38,054 nucleotides of DNA from Candidatus Omnitrophota bacterium (GTDB lineage: Bacteria; Omnitrophota; Gorgyraeia; Zapsychrales; Fredricksoniimonadaceae): contig JADFWS010000003.1 of the NCBI GenBank assembly GCA_015234065.1, positions 1 through 38,054 of the forward strand, in the 5' to 3' direction. The notes beneath the pieces were generated by a model, which saw only the letters and a program-made list of their open reading frames with translations, had not been told where the DNA came from and did not search any database. Of the stretch, positions 365 to 22,659 are shown in pieces. Made by a program: the position numbers and the translations under genes. Position 1 is the stretch's first letter. The number at the start of each line of letters is the position of its first letter.

Positions 365-919
365 TTATTTCGGCTGCGGGATCGGAAGAAACCCGTCCAT
401 TTCGCCTTCACCGATAAAGATCACTGTATTTTTCTTGTGCGTTCCACGCATATAATCCAATTTATAGTCTTTTTCCGGCGGAGCTTTCACGAGCATATCC
501 TGGAACTGCGCCAGGCTTTCAATACTCTTCCCATTGAATGACAGGAGCATATCCCCGATCTTAAGGCCGGCCTTCTCAGCCCAGGAATTACCCATGATCC
601 CGGTCACCTTAACTTTGCCCCCATTGATCGCGATCACCTCGCACCCGAAATACTTGATGAGAACAGGCTTATCAGGCGCATCCGTAATCGCCGGAGCCGT
701 TGCAAACGCGGCCTGCGCCATAGCCGCGGGCTGCATCATCACCTGCTGGCCGCCAACGATCGGGCAAGGCGCTGCCGCCTGCTTGAACGCATCAACGGCC
801 TGGATCTCATGGAACGTATCTACGGCGACATCCTGCGTCTCCTGATGCGTAAAGATCGCGATCACCAGCATGCCCAGGAATCCCACCCCGCAGAGCCCGA
901 TAAAAATTTCTCTCTTCAT
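365..919 (-). CDS. Membrane-anchored single-PDZ protein, magnetosome-associated
   Basis: N-terminal TM, a Met/Gln/Ala-rich linker, then a PDZ signature (YFGCEV...VKVTGIMGNSWAEKAGLKIGDMLLSFNG). Confidence 0.75.
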   Translation of the reverse strand: MKREIFIGLCGVGFLGMLVIAIFTHQETQDVAVDTFHEIQAVDAFKQAAAPCPIVGGQQVMMQPAAMAQAAFATAPAITDAPDKPVLIKYFGCEVIAINGGKVKVTGIMGNSWAEKAGLKIGDMLLSFNGKSIESLAQFQDMLVKAPPEKDYKLDYMRGTHKKNTVIFIGEGEMDGFLPIPQPK

Positions 920-1131: not shown

Positions 1132-2190
1132 TTAACGCAAGAATAACTTGATCGCAAATACAACAAGAATAATAATAAACAGATACAACGTCACTTTGGT
1201 ATTCAGCTTGGAGGCAATACGCGCCCCGACCTGAGCGCCAACAACCACGCCCACGCCCATCCAGCCCGCTTCGTTATACATGACGTTGCCCAAAAAGATA
1301 TGCGGCAACAACGCCACTGCGCACGTAAGCAGGGTCACAAAGTGGCTCGTGGCTGTTGCTACGTGTGTCGGATAATACAATAAGAAGATCAGGATCGGCA
1401 CCTGGAACACGCCGCCGCCGATACCTAAAAAGCCGCAAAAGAAGCCCAACAGCAAATTCATGGAAATACCAAGTTTGTCGTTGGAATAGTAATCGTACTT
1501 GATCCCGAAATTATCCATGAATTTGACCCGGCGAAACCCTCCGGCCTTGGCCGCTTTCAGCTGTTTCTGTTTTTCATGGGCGTTCTTGTCCAGCTTGCCA
1601 ACACTAAAGAATGTATATCCGGCGAGAAACACCAGGAAAATACCAAAAATAATATCAAAAAAGGTCAGATTGACCAGGTGATGAATATAACTGGAAATGA
1701 ACGCTCCCGGCATAGCGGCCAGTGTGAACTTAATCCCGCCTTTATAATCGATGCGCTTTTGCATGGCATATCCGGCGCACCCGGAAAGCGCGTTCAGGAA
1801 CACAATAAAAAGCGATGTTGCCACCAGAAGCTCATTCTCCCAGCCGTAAAAGAATACCAGGATCGGGAGAATCAACGGGCCGCCGCCAATACCCACGATC
1901 GTGCCATAACATCCGATCGCAAAACCGACCAGCGCCAGAACCCAGAACGGCTGATCCGCAACCGGTGCGGCTGGAACAACAGCACCACCGGGCGTCACAA
2001 CCCCACCCTGTGTCTGCAGCGCCACGGCCATGGGCGTACGCGCCATTGTCGTCTGTATCGTCACCGGAACACGGCCTGTCGGATCCGGCGGCCGGAACAT
2101 TGCGAACAACGCCAGGATCACCACTAAAACACCGGCGCCCAGCTTCACATAATCAACACGCTGATCTGCCATGACCTTCTCGGAATCCAT
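1132..2190 (-). CDS. mamO: MamO C-terminal part (TauE/SafE family transporter), no protease domain
   Basis: Two TauE repeats (GTIVGIGGGPLILP; GFLGIGGGVFQVP, ATATS) after an N-terminal TM and linker, inside the mam operon. Confidence 0.75.
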   Translation of the reverse strand: MDSEKVMADQRVDYVKLGAGVLVVILALFAMFRPPDPTGRVPVTIQTTMARTPMAVALQTQGGVVTPGGAVVPAAPVADQPFWVLALVGFAIGCYGTIVGIGGGPLILPILVFFYGWENELLVATSLFIVFLNALSGCAGYAMQKRIDYKGGIKFTLAAMPGAFISSYIHHLVNLTFFDIIFGIFLVFLAGYTFFSVGKLDKNAHEKQKQLKAAKAGGFRRVKFMDNFGIKYDYYSNDKLGISMNLLLGFFCGFLGIGGGVFQVPILIFLLYYPTHVATATSHFVTLLTCAVALLPHIFLGNVMYNEAGWMGVGVVVGAQVGARIASKLNTKVTLYLFIIILVVFAIKLFLR

Positions 2191-4753: not shown

Positions 4754-4768
4754 AAAGATTCCCTGAGT

Positions 4769-7779: not shown

Positions 7780-8979
7780 TTATTTCTTCAAAATAATATG
7801 GCACGTTTTACATTTTCCACGAAACTCGTGGGGCGCAACCGCAGCCTTCGTGATCGGCGGCGGGTTGGGCAGAATATCTCCGGCATCCGTCGGCAGCTGT
7901 CCGCCGGTCACCATAATGATATGACATGTGGTACACGGCTTGTTCCTGTTGCGGTGCGGCGGCAACGCTCCCGGCGTGATCGGCTGAGCCGCTTCATTCT
8001 GGGAAAACCCGAGCGTCCTCAAAGATGTGATCGTAAACTCAAATAACTGCCCGCGCCTGGATACAAGCACCTTGGCTTTATGCTCATTCTTGACCCTGCG
8101 GGTCGCTTCTGTGAACGCCAGGATATCCGGCGTTGAAATGCGCTCCACCGCCAAAACCACGTCCCCGGCTAAGATCCCGGACTCCGCAGATTCAAGCGAT
8201 ATTTCATCGACCAGAATGCCTTTGGCATCCGGCGCCAACTTAAATTCCGTGGCCAATTCAGGCGTGATCGGAATAACTTCAAGCCCCAGCCAATGGCCTT
8301 CGATCAATTCTTTTTGGGCAGCATTTTGTTCTTTCGGTGAAGGCAGGTTCTGGCCTGACGGCGCCCGTTGCGTATTCGCCGGATTAAGCGCCCTGGCTTC
8401 TGTCGTTTCCGCCGGTGACCGGTTCGCAAACGCGACCTGGGTCATGCCCGGTTCTGTGACAAACCCCGGCGTCGGAACAGATGCGGCACCATTGCCTATA
8501 CCTACCGTCTCTGTCTGAACCTGCGCGACAGGCTTATCAAGCCCTATAGCCTGCTTCAGCACATCATGAACACCCACTTTATTTTCCATGGTGATATACA
8601 ACGGCTGGCCCTGACGCGACACATCGAGCAATGCCCCATCTGCAATATTCGTGACCTTGGTCACATTCAGAAAATCGGAAAGATTTTTGATCTTCTTATT
8701 ATTGATGCCTTTTAGCACGTCCCCGGTGCGCACGCCCGCGTCATACGACGGAGACTCGCACCAGTTGACCACAACACCAACCTCTTCCTTCGGGATGTTA
8801 TGCTCCATCGCGATCGAGGGCGTGATATTGCTCACGGACATGCCCGCCCATTCCGCGTCACCCGCACCAATGTGCATAAGCGCCGCCGTAATGAGAAGCC
8901 CCAGGAAAGACAGCACGGCAATAAAGATGACTATCTGTTTCTTTTTTGTCTTGTATTCAATAATAGAAGGCGTGGACAT
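7780..8979 (-). CDS. mamP: MamP (PDZ plus two magnetochrome hemes) with an extra N-terminal PDZ
   Basis: EGHWLGLE PDZ start, and magnetochrome motifs PITPGALPPH...CTTCH and PPPITKAAVAPHEFRGKCKTCH. An additional PDZ begins at AEWAGMSV. Confidence 0.85.
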   Translation of the reverse strand: MSTPSIIEYKTKKKQIVIFIAVLSFLGLLITAALMHIGAGDAEWAGMSVSNITPSIAMEHNIPKEEVGVVVNWCESPSYDAGVRTGDVLKGINNKKIKNLSDFLNVTKVTNIADGALLDVSRQGQPLYITMENKVGVHDVLKQAIGLDKPVAQVQTETVGIGNGAASVPTPGFVTEPGMTQVAFANRSPAETTEARALNPANTQRAPSGQNLPSPKEQNAAQKELIEGHWLGLEVIPITPELATEFKLAPDAKGILVDEISLESAESGILAGDVVLAVERISTPDILAFTEATRRVKNEHKAKVLVSRRGQLFEFTITSLRTLGFSQNEAAQPITPGALPPHRNRNKPCTTCHIIMVTGGQLPTDAGDILPNPPPITKAAVAPHEFRGKCKTCHIILKK

Positions 8980-8987
8980 AGATTATT

Positions 8988-9266
8988 TTATTCTTCTTTT
9001 TTTGTCTCTGCGGCTTTGGTCTCAGACCCCACTTCAATACGTTCGATCGCGGTATGGCACTCGCGGCAAACCCATAACTGCCTCTTGGCGCTGACCATGT
9101 AGCCACCGATCAGCATGAGCGGAACGCCCAAGACCGGGCCGATCCAGAACAGCGTCGAAAGAATGCCGCCCACAAAAAGCACAGAACCAAATTTCTTATT
9201 AAACCTCGGGCCGGTATAAAGCTGCATTTCTCCACTGCAAAGATTACACGTCAACGCTTTTTTCAT
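8988..9266 (-). CDS. Small CxxC-hydrophobic hairpin-CxxC protein
   Basis: CNLC, about 30 hydrophobic/Gly residues, then CRECH. GGAG RBS; operonic. Confidence 0.7.
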   Translation of the reverse strand: MKKALTCNLCSGEMQLYTGPRFNKKFGSVLFVGGILSTLFWIGPVLGVPLMLIGGYMVSAKRQLWVCRECHTAIERIEVGSETKAAETKKEE

Positions 9267-9300
9267 GGATCAACTCCCGTATTAAAAATTGTACTGATGT

Positions 9301-9513
9301 TTACTGCTTGCCCGCGATCAGATCATCGATCGCCTTCTCTTTATCCGCATCGACGGCCTCTACGCTGGCTGCTGCTAACGGCTGTTCCGCAGGAGCTTCT
9401 TCTTTCGACGGCGCCGCACATGAAGACTTGCCTTTGCACAAATTCGCCAACATTGCACCCGCTGCCATGGATAACGCAATCACACCCATTGTGGTTAATG
9501 ATATCGGCTCCAT
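9301..9513 (-). CDS. Small single-TM protein with an acidic Ala/Pro tail
   Basis: GGAGG RBS, N-terminal hydrophobic stretch, fills the operon gap. Confidence 0.65.
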   Translation of the reverse strand: MEPISLTTMGVIALSMAAGAMLANLCKGKSSCAAPSKEEAPAEQPLAAASVEAVDADKEKAIDDLIAGKQ

Positions 9514-9530
9514 TTTATCCTCCCCGGTTA

Positions 9531-11018
9531 TTATCTGACCGCCTGGCCAAATGCCACGCGTGCTGTGTTCGCCTGCTGACCATTATCCATCATCTGATTA
9601 TTCTGAGCCGCCATCGGTGCGTTCATAACCTGATGACAATTCGTACACACACCCCTGTAGACATGCGGCATATTGGCATTGCTTGGAATTGGCGGAGCCA
9701 CAACAGCCGCGACCTGCTGGGCCGCGACCGGAAACGCATTCGCCTGCGTATTAACAGGCATAGCTACCGGAATACCGCCCTGACTGATCATCTGTTTACA
9801 ATTCGGGCATCTCGGATACCCATCATTCGGATCCAACCGGGCATAAAATCTCCAGTTGCACGTCGGACAAACAAACGCTTTCACCGGTGCCTGGCCTTGA
9901 TCAAAATTCGGCTGAACCGGCATCATCTGATTCATTTGCGGCTGCTGGAACTGCACCATGTTCGTCACCGGCTGTTCGATCACCGGGGCCGGCACATTGT
10001 TATTATTGGCCATTTCAAGAGCCATTTCTGCATCACAATTCGGGCATTTCGGAAATTTGTTCGCCTGCCGAACCGCTTTCATACGCCAATTGCAAACCGG
10101 GCAAATAAACCCCTGGGTCTGCTGTTGCTGCGCCGGCTGCACCTGCTGTGGCTGTACCTGCTGCGGTCCAAAACCAAACGCCACTTGCTGCCCTATGCCA
10201 TTCTGATTTCCCGGCAATGGGCACAACGGGCCGCCGTTCCAAGCCACGGGCATATTACCCTGATTAGCCGCTTGCTGCATCATCATACCATTGCCCTGCA
10301 TGCCCCCCTGTTGCATCATGGCCGGTTGCATCATCACACCCTGCTGCATCATGGCCGGGCGCATCATCATGCCGCCGCCTTGTCCCATCGGCATCGGGCA
10401 GTTCGGGCCCATGCCATTACCAAAAGCCACGGGAGCAGGCATCGCCTGACCCATATTCTGGTCTGGCATCTGTCCGGGCATGCCCGGCTGTGGCAGCGTA
10501 TTACTTGCTTGCGGTGTCGCCTGAATTCTGGCCTTGCGATACAACGTCACAACTTTCCTGGCCTGGCCCGTATAACCGCCAAATGCCCTAATACCAAACT
10601 GCATTAAAATGTTATAACTGTCCGGGTCAATGTTGCCAACAATGACCGCTTCTTCACCCTTACCCGCGATCAAATACACCAATTGCGGATTCGGCTGCGT
10701 GCCAAGATACGGATTCTTGATAGACTCAAGCATTTTCTTCGACAACGGATCAACAACCAGGAAATATTTAGCTTCGGGTAACGTAGCCGCCACATTCGCG
10801 TTCAAATTGGACCCGGTCGCGGCAATCACGATCTTCCCGCACGCCGGATTCCCGACATTCTGCGTCTGGCCTTCCGGTGAAAACAGCGCAAAGATCCCGA
10901 CCGCGAGCACCAGCAAAATCGCGCCAAAAATAAAATACGTGTTCAGGTCTGTTTCTTCGAGCCGCGATGAGAGATCGTCGATCGAAACATTCATTTTTTC
11001 TTTCGGATGCTTTACCAT
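9531..11018 (-). CDS. Membrane-anchored mosaic: NifB/NifX domain, Met/Gln-rich region, two CxxC ribbons, one magnetochrome
   Basis: KIVIAATGSNLNANVA...AKYFLVVD...AVIVGNID (NifX-like); CPVCNWR...CPNC and CPTCNWR...CPNC; PPIPSNANMPHVYRGVCTNCH. Confidence 0.8.
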   Translation of the reverse strand: MVKHPKEKMNVSIDDLSSRLEETDLNTYFIFGAILLVLAVGIFALFSPEGQTQNVGNPACGKIVIAATGSNLNANVAATLPEAKYFLVVDPLSKKMLESIKNPYLGTQPNPQLVYLIAGKGEEAVIVGNIDPDSYNILMQFGIRAFGGYTGQARKVVTLYRKARIQATPQASNTLPQPGMPGQMPDQNMGQAMPAPVAFGNGMGPNCPMPMGQGGGMMMRPAMMQQGVMMQPAMMQQGGMQGNGMMMQQAANQGNMPVAWNGGPLCPLPGNQNGIGQQVAFGFGPQQVQPQQVQPAQQQQTQGFICPVCNWRMKAVRQANKFPKCPNCDAEMALEMANNNNVPAPVIEQPVTNMVQFQQPQMNQMMPVQPNFDQGQAPVKAFVCPTCNWRFYARLDPNDGYPRCPNCKQMISQGGIPVAMPVNTQANAFPVAAQQVAAVVAPPIPSNANMPHVYRGVCTNCHQVMNAPMAAQNNQMMDNGQQANTARVAFGQAVR

Positions 11019-11037
11019 ATCTTCCCCTTGTTTAAGA

Positions 11038-11631
11038 TCACTGCATGACCTGGCCGTAACCGAACGGTTTACCCAACAGCGGTGATCCGAGCTGCCAGCT
11101 TCCTTTATAAGGCCCCATGAGCGGCCCGTACTGATAATCGAACGGGATCGTCACATAAGAATTCTTGCCATTCCGGTACACATCCAACAAAATGCCATCT
11201 CTGTACTGAACGCCATTGGCCGCGTTCAAAAAACTTTTACTATCCGCAACAGCCTGACGGCTGATGGACACGATCACATCTGCGGTCTTAATGCCATACT
11301 TGAACGCCAGCTCTTTGCCTTCATCGATCACAAACATCCCTTTGATCTTTCCCGGGAGTTTGAATTCTTTACGGACCACGGCGTTAACCGGAGCCACTTC
11401 CATGCCGAGCCACATCAGGCTGTCCGCTTTTTCCAGCGCTACCGCCGGATTCACTTTCGGCTCGCGCACTTCTCCAAAAAACCCGAACGATGACAAAAGC
11501 TGCAACAAGACGATGACGGCAAGCAACACCGCGCCGAAGAAAATAACCGGCTTCTGTGCCGCGAATTTCTTAACCGCCTCTAAACGCTTTTCAAGATCGC
11601 TCTGATGTTGAGTGTGTTTTGTATGTGTCAT
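11038..11631 (-). CDS. Membrane-anchored PDZ protein (possible detached MamE C-terminal module)
   Basis: TM, then WLGMEVAPV...GIKTADVIVSIS PDZ. Overlaps the mamE stop by 4 nt. Confidence 0.75.
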   Translation of the reverse strand: MTHTKHTQHQSDLEKRLEAVKKFAAQKPVIFFGAVLLAVIVLLQLLSSFGFFGEVREPKVNPAVALEKADSLMWLGMEVAPVNAVVRKEFKLPGKIKGMFVIDEGKELAFKYGIKTADVIVSISRQAVADSKSFLNAANGVQYRDGILLDVYRNGKNSYVTIPFDYQYGPLMGPYKGSWQLGSPLLGKPFGYGQVMQ

Positions 11632-13010
11632 TGGACTTTAACCAACAGCTCATCTGTTTTCCCATTACGGATAATACGGACATTCACATTATCGCCCGGC
11701 CTGAAATGCGTGACAACTTTCTGCACTTCATCTTTACTTGACACCAGAACACCGGCGATCGACGTGATCACGTCCCCACGCTGTATCCCGGCAAAGCTCG
11801 CCGGTGATTCATCCACAACACGATTAACCAGGACTCCCTGCCCCTCGCCAATACCAAACTGGCGCGCCACCACATGGCTTACAGGCATCACTTCAAGCCC
11901 GAAATGGATCGGCACTGGAGCGCTCATGGCCGTAACCGGCAATTTTCCGGTCACCATACCCTTTTGATCTACAGGCACGGTAAAATTCCGGCCCAGATTG
12001 GCTGCCAGGAAATCCTTGCAATCATTGATCGGGATCGTAAATCCTGTGCCGCTGAAAACACCTGTCGGCGCATAAATAGCTGTATTGACACCCACCACCT
12101 CACCATCCAAATTCACAAGAGGCCCGCCGGAAGAACCACGATTAATGGGTGTATCTGTCTGAAAGAGATTCTGGTAACGCACCCCTTCGATCATCAGAGA
12201 CTTGCGAATACCACTGATAATACCGCTGGTGACGGTCTGTTCAATACCAAACGGACTGCCGACCGCGATCACATAATCGCCGATCTGGGTAAAGCTGGAA
12301 TCTCCGAGCTTTGCCTCTGGAAACGGGCCGTCCGCCCTGAGCTTCAACAGCGACAGGTCAAGATTCGGTTCCTGCGCCACAATATCCGCCTTAAGGTCCC
12401 GTGAAGGATTGCCGAACACGGTCACCACAATATCTGTCGCTTCCAGCGTAACATGCGAATTCGTCAGCACATAGCCGCGGTCATCCACAATAATACCAGC
12501 GCCAACATTCTCAAAACCCTTGTTCTCTACAAATTTATCGATCGCCCCGGTAAACGGAGGAACGAATTTAAAACCCTGGGCATCCGTTGTCTGCCGAACA
12601 GGCGTACGAACAATGTGCCTGGCATGAATATCACACACCGAAGGAATGATCGTATTCACGGAATCTTTTAAAGAATTCTGAAATTTGCTGTCCGTATTGG
12701 CCACCAGCTGGAACCCACCACCAGGCGTCGCCTTGGTGATCGCTGCCAACGAATAATTTTTTGCCGAACCCGGTTGCTGAGCCGGAAACGCAGCCGCCCT
12801 AACCTCGCGAGGAAACTTGGGTTCGTTCATGACCTGTGGCGGTGGCGGTGCCGACATCTGAGCTTTTAACTCTTCGGCCTCAACCCCCATCACGATCTCT
12901 TTACGCCTCATGATGACCCAGAACACCAGCATGATCGTGACAAAAACAATGCCAGCGATCCATGGCCCGAGCGGTTGACCGCAAAATTTATTTTTTTCTT
13001 CTTCCGGCAT
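11628..13010 (-). CDS. mamE: MamE HtrA-type serine protease with one PDZ and no magnetochrome
   Basis: Catalytic triad motifs LTNSHV, DLSLLK and INRGSSGGPL; N-terminal TM; C-terminal PDZ; mam context. Confidence 0.85.
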   Translation of the reverse strand: MPEEEKNKFCGQPLGPWIAGIVFVTIMLVFWVIMRRKEIVMGVEAEELKAQMSAPPPPQVMNEPKFPREVRAAAFPAQQPGSAKNYSLAAITKATPGGGFQLVANTDSKFQNSLKDSVNTIIPSVCDIHARHIVRTPVRQTTDAQGFKFVPPFTGAIDKFVENKGFENVGAGIIVDDRGYVLTNSHVTLEATDIVVTVFGNPSRDLKADIVAQEPNLDLSLLKLRADGPFPEAKLGDSSFTQIGDYVIAVGSPFGIEQTVTSGIISGIRKSLMIEGVRYQNLFQTDTPINRGSSGGPLVNLDGEVVGVNTAIYAPTGVFSGTGFTIPINDCKDFLAANLGRNFTVPVDQKGMVTGKLPVTAMSAPVPIHFGLEVMPVSHVVARQFGIGEGQGVLVNRVVDESPASFAGIQRGDVITSIAGVLVSSKDEVQKVVTHFRPGDNVNVRIIRNGKTDELLVKVQ

Positions 13011-13027
13011 CTTTGCTCCCTAACGTG

Positions 13028-13249
13028 TCAGAATGCGAACTTATCACCCGTTGTTGCGCCGCCTGTTGCGGCCTGCGGAAACGCCACCTGTGCCGCTGTT
13101 GTCTTGGGGACAGGCGTTTTATGGAGCCTCTTGTGATGCGTAGTTCCCTTGAATTCAAAGAATATCCCTGCCGCGATCAAAATACAGACCGCTGCAATGA
13201 TCAGAAATCCGAACCAGGGGCTGACACATGTTTCTTTATTGCCGATCAT
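13028..13249 (-). CDS. Small single-TM protein with a QVAF motif
   Basis: Hydrophobic segment, then HHKRLHK and AAQVAFPQ. Between mamI and mamE with an AGGA RBS. Confidence 0.6.
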   Translation of the reverse strand: MIGNKETCVSPWFGFLIIAAVCILIAAGIFFEFKGTTHHKRLHKTPVPKTTAAQVAFPQAATGGATTGDKFAF

Positions 13250-13262
13250 AAAATCCTATCGC

Positions 13263-13433
13263 TTATTTCTTGTCTTTAGCAAGCTTCAAACCGGTATTGA
13301 TCGCAATAAGCCCGCCAACAAGGATCGCAAGCGGCAAAGCCCCGCGCAGGAAATCGCCAAAATTATCCCACCATCCAATGATCCCCACAAGCCCGAGTAC
13401 TGCTGCAACTGCTCCACCGATAATATGTGCCAT
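13263..13433 (-). CDS. mamI: Magnetosome protein MamI (56 aa, absent from the ORF track)
   Basis: Manual translation MAHIIGGAVAAVLGLVGIIGWWDNFGDFLRGALPLAILVGGLIAINTGLKLAKDKK matches the MamI WW-x5-FLRG-x2-P...GL-x-A pattern. AAGGAG RBS. Confidence 0.85.
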   Translation of the reverse strand: MAHIIGGAVAAVLGLVGIIGWWDNFGDFLRGALPLAILVGGLIAINTGLKLAKDKK

Positions 13434-13481
13434 CTTGTTCTCCTTTTTTACTTTTCGTTTAAAATCTTCCCTAAATATGCC

Positions 13482-13853
13482 CTAAACCCCACCGCGTAAG
13501 AACCGCGGGAGGCGATTCTTGATCGAAGCGATCTTTTGACCTAAAACATAAGCGCCTTTTTCAAAAGCAACCGGCTCATCAATTTTATCGGAAATAGCCG
13601 CCCCTGAAGCCGCTTCATGCGCCTTTGGAACGTGCTGGGATACCGATGAATTGCTCTTTTCAACTAATGCAAGAATAACTTTTTTGGGGATCCGCTGATG
13701 CCCACCAATGGTCTCAAAGGCCCGAAGCTTACCTTGCTTGATCCAATTAAGGACCGTAAAACGCGTAACATGGCAAAGCTCTGCGGCTTGAGTGGTGGTC
13801 AGGTAGTCTTCGCTGATCGTGGAAGTGAAATTGTCTTTTAAAGAATGTTCCAT
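13482..13853 (-). CDS. Excisionase/MerR-type HTH DNA-binding protein heading the mam operon
   Basis: YLTTTQAAELCHVTRFTVLNWIKQGKL...GGHQRI. Start set at MEHS and uncertain. Confidence 0.75.
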   Translation of the reverse strand: MEHSLKDNFTSTISEDYLTTTQAAELCHVTRFTVLNWIKQGKLRAFETIGGHQRIPKKVILALVEKSNSSVSQHVPKAHEAASGAAISDKIDEPVAFEKGAYVLGQKIASIKNRLPRFLRGGV

Positions 13854-13965
13854 GACGAATGTAAGCGTATATTTTTCAAGGAGATTAAACGTTCTAAATA
13901 AGTGCCAAATAATATCAATCAACCTAAATCTAGTCAAGAAATATTTCTATACGGATCTATTCTTT

Positions 13966-15024
13966 TCAGCTTTCGACGGGAAAAAATTGTTGAAATCGTT
14001 GAGCATTGAACGCTGCAGCAAAATCGGGACGTTTTAAAGATGCACTTTTATAAACAACAAGAGCATCCTTCTTCTGTTCCACAATAAAAACTTCAACATT
14101 TTTTAACAACCGCGCTGCATGAAGGCCCTGCCGGCCTCCTAAAATACACATGACCGTTGACAGAACATCCGCTTCTTCTGCCGTTCGTGCAATCACGGTC
14201 GCACTGATAGCCCCTGTCTCAGGATAACCTGTCATAGGATCAATAATATGCGAATATTTAACCCCATTGATCATTGAAAACTTTTCATAACTGCCAGATG
14301 TTGATATGCCCTGGTCTTTGATGAGCGCGGCCGCCAGTACTTTAGTCTTATCCAGCGGATCCTGAATGCCGATCATCCAGGGTTTTTGGCCATGATCCAA
14401 ACCACGGCAAAAAAGCTCCCCTCCCATATCCAGCAAAAAGTGCTTTATCTCATTGGCATCTAGCATCTTAGCTAATTCATCGCAGGCAAACCCAGAAACA
14501 ATGCCACCCAAATCTATTCCCATGCCTTGTTTCTTGAAAAACACGCGATCCGGCCCTTCCAAGCGAATATTTTGATACCCAACCATCGCTTGAGCGCCTT
14601 TAACAGCGTTTGAATCAGGGATACAACCCTGCTGACTTGCATTTTTCCACAATTTGATCAGCGGAAGACAGGTAATATCAAACGTGCCGCGGGTCATTTT
14701 AGCCAAACGCAACGCATTTTTCACCACGCGATAAACATCCGAGCTTACTTTTACCCCATGAAACCCATCCTGATTTAATTTGGCCAAGTCTCCGGAAGAC
14801 GAAAAAACATTCATGTGCTGATGCCATTGCTCTATCTTGGCCCAACACGACTGTGTAACAGCAGAAATATCAATGGCGGGGTCATGATAAAGACGTATTT
14901 CAACCATTGTACCGAAATACGGCCTGATTTCCTGATACTCCTTAAGATTTACAGGCAATTTTTTCTCGGAAGAAAAACTCATGCGGGTTTGAAGGCTGGA
15001 AAGGATTTTGGTTATCATGCGCAA
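13966..15024 (-). CDS. apbE: FAD:protein FMN transferase ApbE
   Basis: FGTMVEI, GTFDIT, IDLGGI, ISTSGSYEK, HIIDP, AD-x-LST motifs. Confidence 0.9.
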   Translation of the reverse strand: MRMITKILSSLQTRMSFSSEKKLPVNLKEYQEIRPYFGTMVEIRLYHDPAIDISAVTQSCWAKIEQWHQHMNVFSSSGDLAKLNQDGFHGVKVSSDVYRVVKNALRLAKMTRGTFDITCLPLIKLWKNASQQGCIPDSNAVKGAQAMVGYQNIRLEGPDRVFFKKQGMGIDLGGIVSGFACDELAKMLDANEIKHFLLDMGGELFCRGLDHGQKPWMIGIQDPLDKTKVLAAALIKDQGISTSGSYEKFSMINGVKYSHIIDPMTGYPETGAISATVIARTAEEADVLSTVMCILGGRQGLHAARLLKNVEVFIVEQKKDALVVYKSASLKRPDFAAAFNAQRFQQFFPVES

Positions 15025-15035
15025 CCGGAAACAGA

Positions 15036-15818
15036 TTAAACAAACCGGAGATACTTGCGGAAAAGGCCGGTCATAAAGATCGGCATTAAAAAGACCCCGA
15101 AAAACTCCTCGACTACCGTAATATACCCATTGATCCCCACAGGAACAATGTCTTTATAGCTGATATGGATGAGTGTCAGCGTGCTGTAATAGGTTGTTTC
15201 CAATAAACTGGGCTTTACAGTAACCCCGGCATTGATCATCTGGCCATGAGAGTACAGGTAGGAAAACGTCAAGATAAGAAATAACGCGAATAGAATGGTT
15301 CTCTGGGGCTTTTCGCCGTGTCCCCATATACAAAAGGAGAACGTCATGGTGATCCATGAAAAAACCATGCCCACTTGCTTTTTGAGGCCGTTATTCTGAT
15401 CAAAACCAAACGCGCCGCGCGGACGCAAAAAAGGAAATATATTTAAGGCAAGATGCTTGCGATAACACTCTTTGGAACGATAATAACACTCTGAAAATCC
15501 GGCGTCTTCAAGGTCCCGCTCATGCGATGTAGCCGCATATTTATACAGCATGCTGGCGTATTCAAGATCATACGCCAATTCAGCTTCTTTAGCGGCCTTC
15601 TCATAATTCAATGCCGCATAGTGAAAAAAGGTCTTGTCGCCAGCTTTCAGCGCCCAGCAACTAGCCGCTGATGAGAAACATAGCGCCGCACTTTGATGCT
15701 TGCCTTGACCCTGATGGATCCCGGCCGCTTGAACGAACAATTTTGACGCATCGCCGTAATGCTGTTCATCCAGAAGCCGATGCGCCTCTTTTTCAATCGC
15801 GGAAACATCGTTAGGCAT
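15036..15818 (-). CDS. Helical-repeat protein with a C-terminal K+-channel-like (two TM plus pore) domain and degenerate filter
   Basis: Ala-rich TPR/SNAP-like N-terminus; WGHGEKP, TM, YYSTLTLIHISYKDIVP, TM. Confidence 0.65.
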   Translation of the reverse strand: MPNDVSAIEKEAHRLLDEQHYGDASKLFVQAAGIHQGQGKHQSAALCFSSAASCWALKAGDKTFFHYAALNYEKAAKEAELAYDLEYASMLYKYAATSHERDLEDAGFSECYYRSKECYRKHLALNIFPFLRPRGAFGFDQNNGLKKQVGMVFSWITMTFSFCIWGHGEKPQRTILFALFLILTFSYLYSHGQMINAGVTVKPSLLETTYYSTLTLIHISYKDIVPVGINGYITVVEEFFGVFLMPIFMTGLFRKYLRFV

Positions 15819-15858
15819 ACATTAATTTCAGGTAAATGTTGAAAATGTTGAATTCGTT

Positions 15859-16188
15859 TTAACCCTTTAACGCCTGATCCATGGAATCGTGGATAGCGAC
15901 GATCTTATGCACTTTTGTGATCTCAAGAACGCCCCGGATATCCTTATTGACATTGCAAAGAGATAATTTCCCGTTCACCTTCCGAAGCTTTTGGACCAAC
16001 TCGATCAATGATGCGAGCCCGGAGCTATCCATAAAACTCACGGTTTCAAAATCCAATATCACTTTATTGATTTTTTCGCTGACGATCGGCATGAATACAT
16101 CACGCAGCTGTGCTACATTGTCGGCGTTGATCTCGCCATTCAGCATCAAGATCAGAAAATCATTGTTACGTGTGACTTTTATGTCCAT
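15859..16188 (-). CDS. STAS anti-sigma-factor antagonist (RsbV/SpoIIAA-like)
   Basis: VILDFETVSFMDSSGL phosphoserine motif. Confidence 0.85.
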   Translation of the reverse strand: MDIKVTRNNDFLILMLNGEINADNVAQLRDVFMPIVSEKINKVILDFETVSFMDSSGLASLIELVQKLRKVNGKLSLCNVNKDIRGVLEITKVHKIVAIHDSMDQALKG

Positions 16189-16203
16189 CAAGCCCTCCCT
16201 GCC

Positions 16204-16629
16204 TCAGAAGTTCTTTGTCATCCTGATCGTACGGCCATGATCTTCAAATTCCACATGATCCATCGCATTTTGTATCAAAAAGATGCCCCGTCCGCTCATC
16301 TTTTCCAAGTTTTCAGGCAAAATCGGATTGGGGATGCTTGTATAATCAAAGCCCGGCCCCTGATCTGTGACCTCAATAGTCAACTGCCGCTCTTGAGCCT
16401 GAATATCAACCTTAACAACAAGCGCGGCGTTTAATTTATTGCCATGCTTCATGGCATTGATCACTGCTTCCTGAAGCGCCAGTTTAATATCAAAAGACGC
16501 CTTCTGTTCAAACGGCAGGAAACACAATTTTCCCATGACCGCTGCTATAAAAGCCGGAACAAGGCCTATCCTGGACTGAAGCGTTTCTGAAATATGCAAC
16601 GGAATACCTGACATGAAGCACATGGCCAT
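16204..16629 (-). CDS. RsbW-like anti-sigma factor / Ser kinase
   Basis: LALQEAVINAMKHGN, DQGPGFD and SGRGIFLI HATPase motifs. Confidence 0.85.
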   Translation of the reverse strand: MAMCFMSGIPLHISETLQSRIGLVPAFIAAVMGKLCFLPFEQKASFDIKLALQEAVINAMKHGNKLNAALVVKVDIQAQERQLTIEVTDQGPGFDYTSIPNPILPENLEKMSGRGIFLIQNAMDHVEFEDHGRTIRMTKNF

Positions 16630-16779
16630 AATAAGAATTTATGAATACATTTAAGAATGGCTAATTTTATCAGAAAAGATTTTTTGCGCAAATTATTTGT
16701 TTCAGGTGATAAAACAGTTTTAATATTACGCATAATAGTGGGGCATTTGATGCGGCCGAAACGTACTTACAGGCACCAA

Positions 16780-16932
16780 TTAATGGCAGTTTCCTTTAGA
16801 CTTCGCGCCACACGACCCTTTATCTCCACTGCAACTGGAACATCCGTCACCCTGCTTGAGCGCTTTTTTCATATACCCGGCCAATGCTGCGATCGCGGCC
16901 CCGAATATAGCAAATACGACAAGAATTTCCAT
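16780..16932 (-). CDS. FeoB-associated Cys-rich membrane peptide (50 aa, absent from the ORF track)
   Basis: Manual translation MEILVVFAIFGAAIAALAGYMKKALKQGDGCSSCSGDKGSCGAKSKGNCH: TM, basic patch, GCxxC..C..CH. AAGGGA RBS. Confidence 0.7.
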   Translation of the reverse strand: MEILVVFAIFGAAIAALAGYMKKALKQGDGCSSCSGDKGSCGAKSKGNCH

Positions 16933-17048
16933 AATATTCCCTTCTTGATAATGTCTAAAACGTAAATATTAAACACGAGCGAACCTTATGTCCGCCCGCA
17001 ATAATCTAACATATTAGTCTATGCGACAGGGGAAACCATACGAAAATA

Positions 17049-17951
17049 TTACGCAGGGTCAATAAAGAAATCAATGTCACTTATTAACGGGAGATCCCGA
17101 AAAAGCGCCTGCTTCATGGCATCTGTAAACACGGCAGTATCTGCAATCGTTCCTTTGGAAGAACCGCGCAGGCTAATACCAACCCAGAATTTTTTCCCAA
17201 CCCTTTTAAATTTAATATGTTCCGGCCAGAAATCCGGGCGAATACGCGTAATAACATTACGGATATGCAGAATAAAGCCCGCATCCGGGGCCTGGTCCAG
17301 AATATTCTGTACGCTCATGACCCAATGCTTTAACGCGTCTTTAATGATCGCAACCCCGACGACAAGCGCCGCCAGCCTGTCGCATACGGCAAAATCCGGG
17401 CCAAACTGGGACAAAATAATGCCGCCAATGACCGCACTCGAAGAAATAACATCTGCCCCGGCATGTGCCCCGTTCGCGATCAGCGCCGGACTCTCCAATC
17501 TGCGACCGGCACAAAAATTATAGCGCTGCATCATATATGTCAGAAAAACAGATGTCATGGCCACCGGCAATACCATGATATCTGGCTGAACAAAATCACG
17601 CCGAAGAATAGCCAGAAGGCTGGACAGGGAAATAAATGCCCCCACTCCGATAAGAACGCTAAACGCAATAAGCGTCACCAGAAATTCAAGCCGGGCATAT
17701 CCATACGGGAACCGTGCATCCTGCGGACGGTTAGAGAATGAAAGCGTCACCATGATGGCAATGCTTGTTACCACACACACAATGGACTGAATGCCATCCG
17801 CCAGCATACCGGAACTGTTCGCAAGAACACCCCCCGCAAGCTTGATCACGACGAGAATGGCATTTCCTACAACAGTCCATGCCAGAACCTTTTTAGAACA
17901 CGCCACGCAAGCTTCTGCACTGGGACATGATTGAGCACGTGCTTTTGTCAT
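17049..17951 (-). CDS. Second MamB-like CDF transporter
   Basis: CVAC at the N-terminus, FPYGYARLEF, RYNFCAGRRLESPALIANG, matching mamB GYGFCAGRKLNSPAMIANA. Confidence 0.8.
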   Translation of the reverse strand: MTKARAQSCPSAEACVACSKKVLAWTVVGNAILVVIKLAGGVLANSSGMLADGIQSIVCVVTSIAIMVTLSFSNRPQDARFPYGYARLEFLVTLIAFSVLIGVGAFISLSSLLAILRRDFVQPDIMVLPVAMTSVFLTYMMQRYNFCAGRRLESPALIANGAHAGADVISSSAVIGGIILSQFGPDFAVCDRLAALVVGVAIIKDALKHWVMSVQNILDQAPDAGFILHIRNVITRIRPDFWPEHIKFKRVGKKFWVGISLRGSSKGTIADTAVFTDAMKQALFRDLPLISDIDFFIDPA

Positions 17952-18844
17952 TGTTCGACCATGGGTTTCATCCCCACAAAAATCTCATGGGGTTTTAAAA
18001 ACTTTATTCTTAACGCTTCTTTGATCCTTGCAATAATCTTCTTGGCTTCTGATACCGGCATATCCTTGATCACCGTCAGAATGAGCACAATCTCATACAC
18101 ATGCCCCACTTTGTTCACGCGCAACGCTTCAAGTTCTGCGCCCCGTCCTGCCTGACGCACATGCCGTTCAACAGTACTGATGATCTCCTTATCGCACGAT
18201 GCATCCATAAGCCCGTTAAATGCTCTGTATAGAAACCACACACTGTACGCCACAATAAACACTGCCGCAAAGATCGCGCATGCATAATCAAGGATATACG
18301 CCCCCATCCTTGCCACCACCACCACGACCGCGGTCACGACTGAGAGGATAAAATTTGTTTCAAGGATGAACATGATGTCATGCGCATCTGTCTCACGAAC
18401 AGCAGCAACCTTATTACCAACGATCCCCATAAAAACAAGACTGACGACTGCCGTGCCAAGCGCGATCCATGCCCCCAGAAGTTCCGGCGGATACAGCGTA
18501 TGGAAAAAAACCATGTGACCGGTTGAAAAGATCATCTCCCCTGTAGCCAGCGCAATGATTGCCGATACGCCAAAGAGAACCATGTATTCAAGCTTTCCCT
18601 GGGTAAAAAGCATTTCCCGGCGCCCTGGCCGCACCGACGGATGCGCAACCGCGATCCGCATCAATGTCGCCACTGCGATCAAAATACCGAACAGGGCAAA
18701 AATACCGGCGACGAGCAGGCTTTTCGATGCACTCATAACGCCAAAAACAGTTTTAACAATAAAATCCAACATAAAGAAATAAAGAAGCGCGTACGCAAAA
18801 CGCTCTTTGTTTTCTTTAGCAATATCCAACTTGAATTTCTTCAT
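17948..18844 (-). CDS. Divergent CDF (MamM/MamB-like) lacking canonical metal ligands
   Basis: GKLEY, FNGLMDAS and LRVNKVG CDF landmarks; overlaps the next CDF by 4 nt. Start set at MKKFK. Confidence 0.7.
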   Translation of the reverse strand: MKKFKLDIAKENKERFAYALLYFFMLDFIVKTVFGVMSASKSLLVAGIFALFGILIAVATLMRIAVAHPSVRPGRREMLFTQGKLEYMVLFGVSAIIALATGEMIFSTGHMVFFHTLYPPELLGAWIALGTAVVSLVFMGIVGNKVAAVRETDAHDIMFILETNFILSVVTAVVVVVARMGAYILDYACAIFAAVFIVAYSVWFLYRAFNGLMDASCDKEIISTVERHVRQAGRGAELEALRVNKVGHVYEIVLILTVIKDMPVSEAKKIIARIKEALRIKFLKPHEIFVGMKPMVEQ

Positions 18845-18846
18845 TC

Positions 18847-19671
18847 TTACTTTGCCCCTGTTGTAAGCCCCTGGATCAAATGGCAATTAGAACAGACACC
18901 CCGATAGTTATGCGGCATCTGCGCCGTGATCGGAATAGCGATATCAGGATTAACAACATGACAGCGCTCACATACACCCCGATACTCATGCGGCATGACC
19001 GCATCACGAAATATCATCGGCGCGCCATTGGCTTGCCCTGCCATCGGCTGCGTAAAAGCCACGTTTTGAATGCCCGCTCCCTGCGCCTGACTGTTCATGG
19101 TAATATTCGCACCGCAACGAGGGCAGCGTGAAAATCCGTTTGCACCGGCATTTTGATCAATATAGGAATGATTACAGCGCGGACAGCGAATCCCACTATA
19201 AACCGGCCGCTGAAACGCGACCTGTTGTACGCCAACCGCACAACCGGGCCTGAACGCTACTTGTTGAGCCCCATTAATACCTTGAGGAAAGCATTGGGCA
19301 ACGCTTGGACATGTCGCGCAATTCGGATTTGTTAAAGCCACCTGCTGGGCTGATCCTGCGGCCCCTGGGAAACAATTCGTTACCGTCGGGCACGTAGCGC
19401 AGCCTGGTGGCACATAAGCTGCCTGCAAAGCTCCGCCCAGAACAACAGTTTCCTGCCCGGGCTGAAATGCCACCTGCTGGGCCCCCTGAACCATAACGCC
19501 ATGAACTTGATCCGGCATCGGAATCGGCTTCTTTGCACTACTAAAAACTGCAACGCAAAAGAACGTGGCCAGCCCAAGAATGATAGTTCCAATGATCCAT
19601 AAACTCTTGGAGCTCAAGTTCACACACGACCCGTATTCCCACGCCTCATTTTTCTTTTTTTCACTGCTCAT
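18847..19671 (-). CDS. Two-magnetochrome (MamT-like) protein with Cys-rich repeats
   Basis: TM; two CATCP-x-V-x2-CFP repeats; CPRC...CPRC; MPHEYRGVCERCH and MPHNYRGVCSNCH. Confidence 0.8.
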   Translation of the reverse strand: MSSEKKKNEAWEYGSCVNLSSKSLWIIGTIILGLATFFCVAVFSSAKKPIPMPDQVHGVMVQGAQQVAFQPGQETVVLGGALQAAYVPPGCATCPTVTNCFPGAAGSAQQVALTNPNCATCPSVAQCFPQGINGAQQVAFRPGCAVGVQQVAFQRPVYSGIRCPRCNHSYIDQNAGANGFSRCPRCGANITMNSQAQGAGIQNVAFTQPMAGQANGAPMIFRDAVMPHEYRGVCERCHVVNPDIAIPITAQMPHNYRGVCSNCHLIQGLTTGAK

Positions 19672-19683
19672 AATAATGCCCTT

Positions 19684-20112
19684 TCATGGCCTTGTTCCTA
19701 CAACAATATAAACCGAAACCGGCTGCCCCTGTCGGTCGACTGTGAGCGCAACCTTCTGATTTTCCTGCGCCGCCTGAATCAAGCCCTGCAACTCATCCGA
19801 ACTTGTAATACTGACCCCGTTCCAACGTCGGATCACATCTCCGACCTGAATACCCGCCACCTGCGCCGGAGAGTCAATGAACGTTCGCGCCACAAGAACA
19901 CCGCTCGAAGACGGAACGCTGAATTGCCGCTGAACATCCGAGGTCAGATCAATCGTCTCGGCCCCGATCCACACCTTTGTTTTCATAGCGTTAAAGTACA
20001 TGGGGATCAATTTCAAATAAATGATAAAGACCGCGGACATAAACAACAGGACCAGAACAACAATCCCCCGCCCTTTATATGCTGAACTCGCGCGTTGCAC
20101 AGGTTTAAACAT
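19684..20112 (-). CDS. Membrane-anchored PDZ protein
   Basis: TM, then VWIGAE...SGVLV...DSPAQVAGIQVGDVIRRWNG. Confidence 0.8.
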   Translation of the reverse strand: MFKPVQRASSAYKGRGIVVLVLLFMSAVFIIYLKLIPMYFNAMKTKVWIGAETIDLTSDVQRQFSVPSSSGVLVARTFIDSPAQVAGIQVGDVIRRWNGVSITSSDELQGLIQAAQENQKVALTVDRQGQPVSVYIVVGTRP

Positions 20113-21125: not shown

Positions 21126-21482
21126 TTACTGCGTTTCTATCCAGGTCATTGGCCTCCCACAATGCGGGCACAACGGAAATCCACCTTTGCCGCACGCAGG
21201 ACAAACAAAAATTCCTCTGTATCCGTTCCAAAACATCGCGACTTTACATGTCGGGCATAACGGGATCCCCTTGGTGCCGCATATAGGACACACGCTATAG
21301 ACATTATGCGCAATAACTTTCATGACCACATTGCCTGCAATAAGTGAACGCACCTGAAGGGTTTTATATTTCCCGACAGAATACGCACCGTACCCGGCCA
21401 CGAACACCATGAAGATCACGCCCATAATCAACAGCCTGATCCGGTCCTGTTCGTGAATGTTCGTTTGGTCGTTAATACTCAC
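21126..21482 (-). CDS. Membrane-anchored protein with four CPxC motifs (double zinc/rubredoxin-like ribbon)
   Basis: CPIC, CPTC, CPAC and CPHC in two internally repeated units after a TM. Confidence 0.75.
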   Translation of the reverse strand: MSINDQTNIHEQDRIRLLIMGVIFMVFVAGYGAYSVGKYKTLQVRSLIAGNVVMKVIAHNVYSVCPICGTKGIPLCPTCKVAMFWNGYRGIFVCPACGKGGFPLCPHCGRPMTWIETQ

Positions 21483-22183
21483 AGCACCTTTACCTTTGGT
21501 TTCACGCCGCCCGCCGGAGCCGGCGCTGTCACCGCCGTTACTTCATGCATGGCCCCGCCGCATTTGGGGCATTTGTCCGGGATCACCTTGCCGGCGCTCT
21601 TTTCCGAAATGCGATACTGGCAATCGAAACAAATATAATATTTGCCCTGAACGACCCGTCCGAGGTTGGCCTGCGTATCAAAAGAATTGCAGGCCACGGC
21701 CTTTTTGCTTCCCGTAATACCAAAATGCGCCGGAACATTCTCCGCGGTCAGTTTGGTCAGCGCATCCGGATAATCCTGAAGCGCCTGCCAGGCCGTCCCG
21801 TGAATGTCCGTATACACATCAATACGTGCCTGATCAAAAATACGGAAAGGCTCAAAGCCGACATTGTTCCCCAAGACCACATCCACGCCAAGATCAACCA
21901 ACATTTGCGCCGAGCGCAATCCCGCGGCATGCTGAGCATCCATATATTTATTTGGAACAGCTTTCCATGTTCTTCTGGCACGGTCGCAAATGATATAGTA
22001 CGGCGCGCGCCCAAAAAGATAGGAAACAGGGCTCGTAATATCTTGCCCAGTCGCGGCAATAGCCACCAGAACAGCCTTTCTTCCGCTTAAAACAAGCGGA
22101 TTATCCATTTCATACCATGCACGGCCGGCTACAAGGCCAAGTGCGCACAAAAGAACCAGTAGAAAGGCTGATCTCTTCTTCAT
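21479..22183 (-). CDS. Signal/TM-bearing NifB/NifX-family protein with a C-terminal CxxC ribbon
   Basis: VAIAATGQDITSPVSYLFGRAPYYII...GVDVVLGNNVG; CFDC...CPKC. Confidence 0.85.
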   Translation of the reverse strand: MKKRSAFLLVLLCALGLVAGRAWYEMDNPLVLSGRKAVLVAIAATGQDITSPVSYLFGRAPYYIICDRARRTWKAVPNKYMDAQHAAGLRSAQMLVDLGVDVVLGNNVGFEPFRIFDQARIDVYTDIHGTAWQALQDYPDALTKLTAENVPAHFGITGSKKAVACNSFDTQANLGRVVQGKYYICFDCQYRISEKSAGKVIPDKCPKCGGAMHEVTAVTAPAPAGGVKPKVKVL

Positions 22184-22641
22184 TTCCTGGGACGCCTCTG
22201 TTTCACGTCACCAGAGTCAATAACTTCTGTATTCCCGTGCTCAAAATGTATCTTTTTGTAATACTCACAAGAAAGGCAGGATGTCTTGCAGAATATCTTC
22301 TGATGCGCCACATGCTCGCGCAGGGCATAACACTTTTTGGTGTCCGAGAGAAAAACCACGCACAGCTTGCAATTATGAACGCCATTCATCTTCGGCGTCT
22401 GATGATACTCCCAGCACCTGAGAAAATCCGATTGCGATATGAGTTTTTCCGATTTAAACGCATCGATCCCGATCTTGTAGGTCTTGATAAATGCGATAAG
22501 GTCCGCCCGATGGATCCGGCGATGCCCTCCAGGCGTTTTTGTGCTTTTAAGGATCCCCTGCTTGGCCCAATTAATGACTGAAAATCTTGTGACACTACAA
22601 AGTTTGGCCGCATCCACGGTCGAATAATATTCCTTCATCAT
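22180..22641 (-). CDS. Excisionase-type HTH regulator with a Cys-rich C-terminal domain
   Basis: YYSTVDAAKLCSVTRFSVINWAKQG...TPGGHRRI; CWEYH..CKLC..CY..CKTSCLSCEYY. GGAGG RBS before ATG 22641. Confidence 0.8.
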   Translation of the reverse strand: MMKEYYSTVDAAKLCSVTRFSVINWAKQGILKSTKTPGGHRRIHRADLIAFIKTYKIGIDAFKSEKLISQSDFLRCWEYHQTPKMNGVHNCKLCVVFLSDTKKCYALREHVAHQKIFCKTSCLSCEYYKKIHFEHGNTEVIDSGDVKQRRPRK

Positions 22642-22659
22642 GCACCCTCCCAAGGCAAC

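Follow-up and report, generated by a model that had tools for sequence, protein, structure and literature searches.

The window analysed here is a stretch of 38,054 nt from a Candidatus Omnitrophota bacterium (contig JADFWS010000003.1 of assembly GCA_015234065.1), in which an earlier sequence-only reading had picked out a short peptide, Q-V-A-F, that recurs in several predicted magnetosome proteins and had been taken for a processing or PDZ docking signal. The window comprises the whole of contig C110, one of 176 in an assembly of 1.75 Mb, and its minus strand carries nearly all of the long open reading frames (ORFs). Pfam searches with the window proteins recognise components of a magnetosome gene cluster, among them three magnetochrome (MCR) proteins (7780-8979, 9531-11018 and 18847-19671), five cation-efflux (CDF) proteins, a TPR protein, a LemA protein, NifX-like proteins and a 4Fe-4S protein. 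The closest homologs belong to Candidatus Omnitrophica/Omnitrophota, and others to Planctomycetota, Fibrobacteria and Hydrogenedentes. Seven PDZ domains, all of the HtrA type, are encoded in the window: one each in 365-919, 2201-4021, 11038-11631, 19684-20112 and the MamE-like protein, and two in the MamP-like protein, where 'MamE-like' and 'MamP-like' are labels for domain architecture. The proteins that carry the motif or a weaker form of it, with their transmembrane segments (TMs), are:

365..919, minus strand: TM and PDZ protein of 184 amino acids (aa) (Pfam PDZ_6, 1.7e-09)
1132..2190, minus strand: TauE-family transporter with N-terminal TM and linker (Pfam TauE, 3.2e-55)
7780..8979, minus strand: MamP-like protein with TM, PDZ1, linker, PDZ2 and two MCR domains (Pfam, AlphaFold2 model)
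9531..11018, minus strand: 495-aa protein with TM, NifX-like domain, Q/M/P-rich linkers, two zinc ribbons and one MCR domain (Pfam MCR, 8e-08)
11628..13010, minus strand: MamE-like HtrA protease, trypsin fold plus one PDZ domain, the proposed reader of the motif (Pfam Trypsin_2, 3.5e-29; PDZ_2, 3.6e-15)
13028..13249, minus strand: 73-aa protein with a single TM, one motif copy and a C-terminus that is hydrophobic and conserved (five orthologs aligned)
18847..19671, minus strand: 274-aa protein with TM, two three-Cys modules, zinc ribbon, two MCR domains and five motif copies (Pfam MCR, 2.7e-11)

The MamE-like protease matches the structures of DegP, DegQ and DegS with E values of 1e-53 to 1e-32. 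Its residues H186, D218 and S294 are invariant in 15 sequences and, from family membership, would form the catalytic triad; the protease looks intact and active. The solved MamP structure 4jj0 aligns with residues 220-397 of the MamP-like protein (E = 4.5e-37). The Nitro_FeMo-Co match in 9531-11018 (5.2e-05) falls under the Pfam cutoff.

Translation of the window ORFs places every string listed by the sequence-only reading at its gene. The 18847-19671 protein (minus strand) carries QQVAF at aa 65, 136 and 149, QQVAL at 109 and QNVAF at 202, while the 9531-11018 protein (minus strand) carries PVAF at 196, PVAW at 257, QQVAF at 277, QQVAA at 434 and RVAF at 487. The copies are given below together with the segments for which AlphaFold2, run on family alignments, returns a predicted local distance difference test score (pLDDT) under 50; such low scores are used here as a prediction of disorder.

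19465..19476, minus strand: QVAF, aa 66-69 (in QQVAF), segment 57-69 with pLDDT below 50
19333..19344, minus strand: QVAL, aa 110-113, segment 106-115 with pLDDT below 50
19252..19263, minus strand: QVAF, aa 137-140, segment 129-156 with pLDDT below 50
19213..19224, minus strand: QVAF, aa 150-153, same segment 129-156
19054..19065, minus strand: NVAF, aa 203-206, MCR-proximal, about 28 aa before the first CxxCH, segment 199-221 with pLDDT below 50
10422..10433, minus strand: PVAF, aa 196-199 (ortholog column AQVAF, TQAAF, TQVAF, APVAF)
10239..10250, minus strand: PVAW, aa 257-260, from the translated ORF
10176..10187, minus strand: QVAF, aa 278-281, directly before zinc ribbon 1 (12 of 12 aligned sequences have Q-[VA]-[AG]-aromatic/L, then G-x-G)
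9705..9716, minus strand: variant QVAA, aa 435-438, MCR-proximal (orthologs QVAM, QIAL, PVAM)
9549..9560, minus strand: variant RVAF, aa 487-490, near the C-terminus (orthologs end [RH]-[VI]-[AGV]-[FI]-G-x-x-K/R)
8428..8439, minus strand: QVAF, aa 181-184 (TQVAF at 180), in the MamP-like PDZ1-PDZ2 linker, whose residues 149-210 have pLDDT below 50
13079..13090, minus strand: QVAF, aa 54-57 (AQVAF at 53), 73-aa protein ([QP]-[AI]-A-[FY] in 4 of 5 orthologs)
12786..12797, minus strand: weak AAAF, aa 72-75 (RAAAF), MamE-like linker after the TM (A73 invariant, 15/15)
704..715, minus strand: weak QAAF, aa 69-72 (AQAAF), 365-919 protein ([QP][VIA]A[FYWM] in 6 of 9 distinct orthologs)
2017..2028, minus strand: motif-like AVAL, aa 55-58, linker before the TauE domain (10 sequences aligned)

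There are at least 14 copies in six to seven cluster proteins, and QQVAF is the commonest form in this cluster. The description of the motif as Q-V-A-F needs widening: the core recurs as claimed, but the Gln is dispensable, with Pro about as common in its place and Ala often standing for Val. Across the alignments the consensus is [QP]-[VIA]-A-[FYWLM], of which Q-V-A-F is one form.

The strict string is confined to a few proteins. QVAF occurs in 6 copies in 4 cluster proteins, and, as the sequence-only reading had observed, only in magnetosome proteins here: the remainder of the 46 translated window ORFs (11,858 aa in all) contain none, while plain VAF is found in six further window ORFs. When the four proteins were shuffled (3000 times each, globally, in 40-aa blocks and in 20-aa blocks), the mean QVAF count was 0.035-0.056 and the maximum 2, against the real 6, which was reached in 0/3000. 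In a crude ORF set for the whole assembly (1719 ORFs, 560,186 aa, longest-ORF rule) QVAF occurs 10 times, 5 of them on this contig, and QQVAF 4 times, all 4 on it; the sixth cluster QVAF, in the 73-aa ORF, is missing from that set owing to its overlap filter. Expressed as density, six cluster proteins hold 6 QVAF in 1885 aa versus 5 in 548,147 aa for the rest of the genome. The matches outside the contig that were inspected lie in an S3-like ribosomal ORF, a BioD/BioA-like ORF and a Q/A-rich secreted ORF, which we set aside as unrelated, judging by eye from the sequence.

The same holds when composition is matched. Linker-like stretches, defined as those with at least 65% Q/A/G/P/T/N/S/M, contain no QVAF outside the contig (22,878 aa in 515 regions), and 5 in the six cluster proteins (791 aa). 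The broader [QP][VIA]A[FYW] gives 2 and 9 matches in these two sets. Such linkers elsewhere in the genome are therefore without the string, which argues that the motif is specific and no by-product of composition, and the equal genome-wide frequency that would have spoken against the sequence-only reading was not found. Both outside matches to the broader pattern (QAAY and QIAY) come from a single ORF, at 4172-5273 on the minus strand of contig C147: a 367-aa, Q/A-rich protein with a signal-like N-terminus that looks helical, repetitive and unrelated to the cluster. At the DNA level the copies differ, with CAG or CAA, GTG, GTA or GTC, GCA, GCT or GCG, and TTT or TTC at the successive positions. 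Because different synonymous codons are used, the copies are not recent DNA duplicates and selection acts on the peptide.

The motif is also conserved in the orthologs of the 18847, MamP-like, 9531, 73-aa and PDZ families, so that a lack of conservation, the other outcome that would have told against the sequence-only reading, is not what we see. Among 58 homologs of the 18847 protein, Q-x-[VI]-A-[FYWLM] is present in 47, in two or more copies in 26, and the broader [QP][VIA]A[FYWLM] in 55. In 78 MamP-like orthologs the four motif columns read Q39/P21, V33/I25/A19, A76 and F59/L9/M7, and they form a conserved island in a PDZ1-PDZ2 linker that is otherwise mostly gaps. This island runs on past the motif as A-N-R-S-P-A-E-T-A-E-A (aa 185-199), a block kept in about 50 of the 78 and absent as a whole in about 23; its A-N-R-S-P-A-E-T-A-E stretch may be a second signal. 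The 9531 family (12 sequences) has three conserved motif places, again as islands in gappy segments, and a related C-terminal R-V-[AG]-[FI]-G. In the MamE-like family (15 sequences) the TM is followed by V-x-[PQ]-A-A-x, in which A73 is invariant and the last residue is F, M or Y in 10/15. Further along the same N-terminal linker, aa 85-105 hold a conserved A-A-I-T-K-A-T-P-N-G-G-M-Q-L-V-A, which is partly duplicated in the related loci L022, L024, L029 and L031. The TauE linker, compared in 10 sequences, has x-[VA]-A-[LA] in 5 (MQVAA, MQVAL, MQAAL, MAVAL), a degenerate form in 2 and no such segment in 3.

A count over 33 related loci (620 distinct crude ORFs under the longest-ORF rule, assigned to families by best BLASTP hit to the window proteins) places 94 of 118 [QP][VIA]A[FYWM] matches in the six motif families, which make up 26,308 of the 161,246 aa; the other 134,938 aa hold 24. 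No match was found in the CDF transporter, TPR and LemA families of these loci, nor in 11 orthologs of the TM and PDZ protein at 11038-11631.

The location of the copies agrees with what the sequence-only reading had proposed: by Pfam coordinates and AlphaFold2 confidence they fall in linkers downstream of a TM. The 18847 model, for example, has a helix at 21-47 and a zinc ribbon region with pLDDT 92-97. The residues around the motif are particular to each family (P-P-x-C in 18847, G-x-G in 9531, A-N-R-S in the MamP-like protein, P-S in the 73-aa protein), and only the core of four to five residues is common. Because a conserved island in a gappy segment coincides with predicted disorder and family-specific flanks, we take [QP]-[VIA]-A-[FYWLM] to be a short linear motif in predicted disordered, lumen-facing linkers of at least six cluster families: two magnetochrome/zinc-ribbon proteins, the MamP-like protein, the 73-aa anchor protein, the PDZ protein and the MamE-like protease; the TauE transporter has a weaker form. 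It resembles short linear motifs in general in being a conserved island of four to five residues, in gappy, low-confidence linkers, within otherwise unrelated contexts. To our knowledge, such motifs have seldom been described in bacterial organelle lumens. The lumenal side follows from where the copies lie, past a single TM on its C-terminal side, in proteins that have MCR domains with c-type haem, and should be read as a prediction. Cleavage by signal peptidase I, which follows a rule of small residues at -3 and -1 close after the hydrophobic core, was rejected: the motifs lie 18 to more than 400 residues past the TM helix, and -3 would be Gln or Pro.

Since it recurs in flexible linkers, is kept in related bacteria and looks like the one mapped cut site of MamE, the motif probably serves as a recognition signal for a protease or for PDZ domains. 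The interpretation that we favour, tentatively and as a possible rather than a probable one, is that the motif is a recognition and cleavage determinant of the cluster's own MamE-like HtrA protease (11628-13010). The aliphatic residue would occupy S1, the near-invariant Ala S1' and the aromatic residue S2', and the chain would presumably be cut between [VIA] and Ala, with the PDZ domain perhaps helping to engage the motif segment. Modules would thereby be detached from each other or from their membrane anchors. For example, the MamP motif lies directly upstream of residues 220-397, the core of the solved MamP, and so separates an anchor module from the canonical PDZ-MCR-MCR core that cleavage might release.

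Indirect support for cleavage comes from the one mapped MamE-dependent site, which is in the alphaproteobacterium Magnetospirillum magneticum AMB-1 (Hershey et al. 2016, 10.1101/047555). There a protease-domain fragment of MamO ends in ...GQPQTQTV, with AAGS following, and the fluorogenic peptide TQTVAAGS is hydrolysed by MamE and left uncut by MamE S297A. The site, Q-x-V|A-A, thus has the Q-x-V-A core of our motif. AMB-1 MamO is cut between its protease and TauE domains, and AMB-1 MamP parts from its membrane anchor; for MamD, with cuts placed in residues 229-259, PMC8833152 reports that attempts to map the sites failed. The resemblance extends to the setting: the AMB-1 site lies in a lumenal linker before a TauE domain, an HtrA protease is encoded in the magnetosome cluster, cleavage there separates modules or removes anchors, and at the corresponding places here there is the motif (MamP) or a motif-like string (TauE linker, 5 of 10 sequences). 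The differences are that the AMB-1 case, as reported in 10.1101/047555, is a single site in one alphaproteobacterial protein with Ala rather than an aromatic after V-A and is not described as recurring, whereas here the motif recurs at least 14 times in six to seven proteins and is kept in other phyla, and that the MamE-like protease here, unlike AMB-1 MamE, has one PDZ domain and is without magnetochrome domains. This comparison was made with the text of that paper rather than with alphaproteobacterial sequences; a search with the TauE protein for longer (fused MamO) forms returned 2 unrelated multidomain proteins.

The exact pentamer QTVAA occupies the motif position in P0028, a homolog of the 18847 protein from Fibrobacteria, and in the inter-PDZ linker of P0175, a fused MamE-MamP protein whose relatives have FQTVA[LFMAV]. 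Natural MamE and MamP fusions of this kind are seen in P0144, P0152, P0160, P0164, P0175 and P0178, in the order TM, linker, HtrA protease, PDZ, linker, PDZ and two to three MCR domains, with PAAF-like strings after the TM.

The [VIA]-A core is compatible with HtrA subsites, which take an aliphatic P1 and a small P1'. According to PMC4481513, HtrA2 and HtrA3 cut IRRV|SYSF, that is, between Val and a small residue followed by an aromatic one, and HtrA3 favours Leu or Val at P1 and Leu, Ala or Ser at P1', with Pro or a polar residue at P2. This optimum is like [QP]-[VIA]|A-[FYW] at all four positions (polar or Pro P2, aliphatic P1, small P1', aromatic P2'), but it comes from eukaryotic enzymes on an artificial peptide, and with a loose specificity that differs from the tightly conserved motif here.

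Several points weigh against this interpretation. The support from a mapped site amounts to one site, in distant Alphaproteobacteria, with Ala in the final position. HtrA proteases are usually loose in specificity. Known HtrA sites are less strict than the near-invariant Ala and the preferred aromatic, a pattern that a binding groove could explain equally well, and the A-N-R-S-P-A-E-T-A-E stretch beyond the MamP motif is unexplained by a bare cut site. In the 18847 family, a Cys of the repeated C-x-x-C-P-x4-C-F-P module comes within 10 residues after 127 of 178 instances, and 45 of 209 instances, about one copy per protein, precede the first CxxCH in a fixed register of 20-35 aa, so that some copies may belong to folded units that AlphaFold2 models poorly. 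In 117 more distant MCR proteins, where [QP]-V-A-M forms are recurrent, the enrichment is modest: there are 46 matches, where 300 shuffles gave 27.0 on average and at most 45. Finally, the counts rest on crude longest-ORF sets, and the broad pattern was refined post hoc, with the data in view.

The alternative that survives best, although we consider it unlikely as the whole explanation, is that the motif is an internal PDZ ligand that stays uncut and binds by strand addition to one or more of the seven HtrA-type PDZ domains. The outcome would be a multivalent lumenal scaffold that holds the magnetochrome proteins, or an allosteric switch that turns the protease on. Besides the proteins already listed, PDZ domains are present in:

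2201-4021: PDZ-CitMHS transporter (Pfam)
11038..11631, minus strand: TM and PDZ protein of 197 aa, candidate reader, without the motif (Pfam PDZ_2, 7.1e-06)
19684..20112, minus strand: TM and PDZ protein of 142 aa, candidate reader (Pfam PDZ_2, 5.1e-11)

Seven such domains and at least 14 motif copies would suit a scaffold, and 10.1101/047555 reports that the AMB-1 MamE PDZ domains bind internal peptides, which activate the protease, and gives a PDZ1 selection alignment of the form hydrophilic-x-x-x-aromatic, which Q-x-V-A-F fits; that phage-display pattern is itself loose. The same data bear on the sequence-only reading, which had proposed that cleavage creates new C-termini for the PDZ domains: the AMB-1 MamE PDZ enriched no C-terminally displayed peptides and favoured internal ones (10.1101/047555). 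Of that interpretation as a whole, the specific, conserved signal stands, and the supply of new C-termini to PDZ domains is not supported, since the AMB-1 data point the other way.

The canonical features of a PDZ ligand are present only in part. Class II ligands have the form hydrophobic-x-hydrophobic, and V-A-F has it: hydrophobic residues at positions 0 and -2 are provided by [VIA]-A-[FYWLM] and, at the C-terminus of the 73-aa protein, by [FL]-x-F. The free C-terminal carboxylate of the canonical mode is lacking, as all copies are internal save that one C-terminus. In canonical ligands the middle residue faces solvent and is variable, whereas no position of the motif is more conserved than its middle Ala (76 of 78 MamP-like sequences). 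We obtained no docking: a complex prediction of MamE-like residues 150-460 (15-row alignment) with the MamP linker 160-215 (77 rows) gave a score of 0.03 (mark 0.32) without controls, and it is counted neither way. PDZ docking and protease recognition can both be true.

The C-terminus of the 73-aa protein is a special case.

13031..13039, minus strand: C-terminal F-A-F of the 73-aa protein (family end K-[FL]-x-F)

In this protein and in each of the five orthologs the last residue is F and the one two places before it is F or L (aa 69-73), and the K-[FL]-x-F end is present in 6/6 sequences, a point in favour of PDZ binding. DegS is activated by outer-membrane-protein C-termini ending in Y-x-F. 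The K-[FL]-x-F end and the HtrA-type PDZ domains are like this system, and the 73-aa C-terminus is a candidate activator peptide of the MamE-like protease; most motif copies, unlike DegS or class II ligands, are internal, without a free carboxylate, and have the middle Ala as their most conserved residue.

A smaller probability attaches to a structural role without any signal, in which the motif is the first strand of a three-Cys repeat of about 27 aa or an N-terminal extension of the MCR domain, and its presence in several proteins reflects shared descent of segments. In favour are the 178 instances of the 18847 family, of which 127 have a Cys within 10 aa, as noted above, and 100 a Cys-Pro; the repeat has the consensus QQVAF-x-P-P-x-C-A-T-C-P-x4-C-F-P, about 27 residues with the motif at its head, and the MCR-proximal copies of the 18847 and 9531 families share the same register. 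However, a Cys is nearby in 0 of 15 MamP, 0 of 4 73-aa and 0 of 13 MamE instances, 83 of 85 MamP instances lie more than 100 aa from the haem motif, the flanks are family-specific, and the motif segments have lower pLDDT than the adjoining Cys modules. A structural role fits some copies, but not those of MamP, MamE and the 73-aa protein. The three-Cys module itself (C-A-T-C-P-x4-C-F-P; aa 85-130 of 18847-19671) follows most motif copies and occurs from 0 to at least 4 times per homolog (P0002-P0059), with an AlphaFold2 confidence of 45-64; it may be a small metal- or disulfide-bound unit, and is without a Pfam family.

We give little credence to a reader of another kind, whether the motif were a lumenal sorting signal, a contact to the growing crystal or a site for another protease. 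Its restriction to magnetosome-cluster proteins would be in keeping with this, and PMC11628618 states that no universal recognition motif is known for magnetosome protein sorting. A lumenal position and several repeats per protein would be unusual for a sorting signal, though, the motif has no charged residues with which to bind iron oxide, and many cluster membrane proteins, with the CDF transporter, TPR and LemA families at 0 matches, do without it. Chance, Gln/Ala-rich composition or recent internal DNA duplication retain practically no weight: the linkers are rich in Q, A, G and P and one protein has three QQVAF copies, but the shuffles, the matched linker-like regions elsewhere, the codon differences and the retention of the motif in orthologs of other genomes rule such origins out.

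MamE-dependent proteolysis is a checkpoint of magnetite formation. Its existence and one cut site were known already; a recurring, conserved motif common to several magnetosome proteins appears to be new. None of the papers listed for MamE cleavage and linker motifs or for Omnitrophica magnetochrome gene clusters describes the motif, and among the literature matches listed for QQVAF, QPVAF and TQTVAA these strings are absent and no match concerns magnetosomes. The motif offers concrete peptides and point mutants with which the substrate or ligand code of the protease checkpoint can be tested, predicts which proteins of uncultured magnetotactic bacteria are substrates and where their fragments end, suggests a larger precursor as the source of the canonical MamP core, and would be a clear case of a short linear motif network within a bacterial organelle.

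A bolder version of the favoured reading, which we regard as doubtful, takes [QP]-[VIA]-A-aromatic for a code by which the magnetosome HtrA proteases of deep-branching magnetotactic lineages (Omnitrophota, Planctomycetota, Fibrobacteria and Hydrogenedentes) generally recognise their substrates and are activated. If so, wherever a redox (magnetochrome), zinc-ribbon, PDZ or transporter module is released from its anchor, the code would mark the point. The 73-aa protein would serve, through its outer-membrane-protein-like K-F-x-F end, as an activator peptide of the DegS type, and the AMB-1 MamO site would be what is left of the code in degenerate form. Control of the maturation of the biomineralisation machinery by proteases would then be ancient, and could be read from sequence.

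Some other features of the cluster are worth recording. NifX/FeMo-cofactor-like domains occur in three proteins (9531-11018, 21479-22183 and 26226-27380, all on the minus strand; one below the Pfam cutoff), where they are combined with zinc ribbons and MCR, with a zinc ribbon and with a CDF transporter, respectively. Regulators lie inside the cluster (15859-16629, 13482-13937 and 22180-22653, all minus strand), namely a STAS anti-sigma antagonist, an anti-sigma-type kinase (HATPase_c_2) and two HTH_17 proteins, and the STAS, HATPase_c_2 and HTH_17 regulators are kept in related loci. A 436-aa ORF at 9297-10607 on the plus strand runs antisense to the 9531-11018 gene; most likely it arises from the low complexity of that Q/M/P-rich coding sequence and is no gene of its own.

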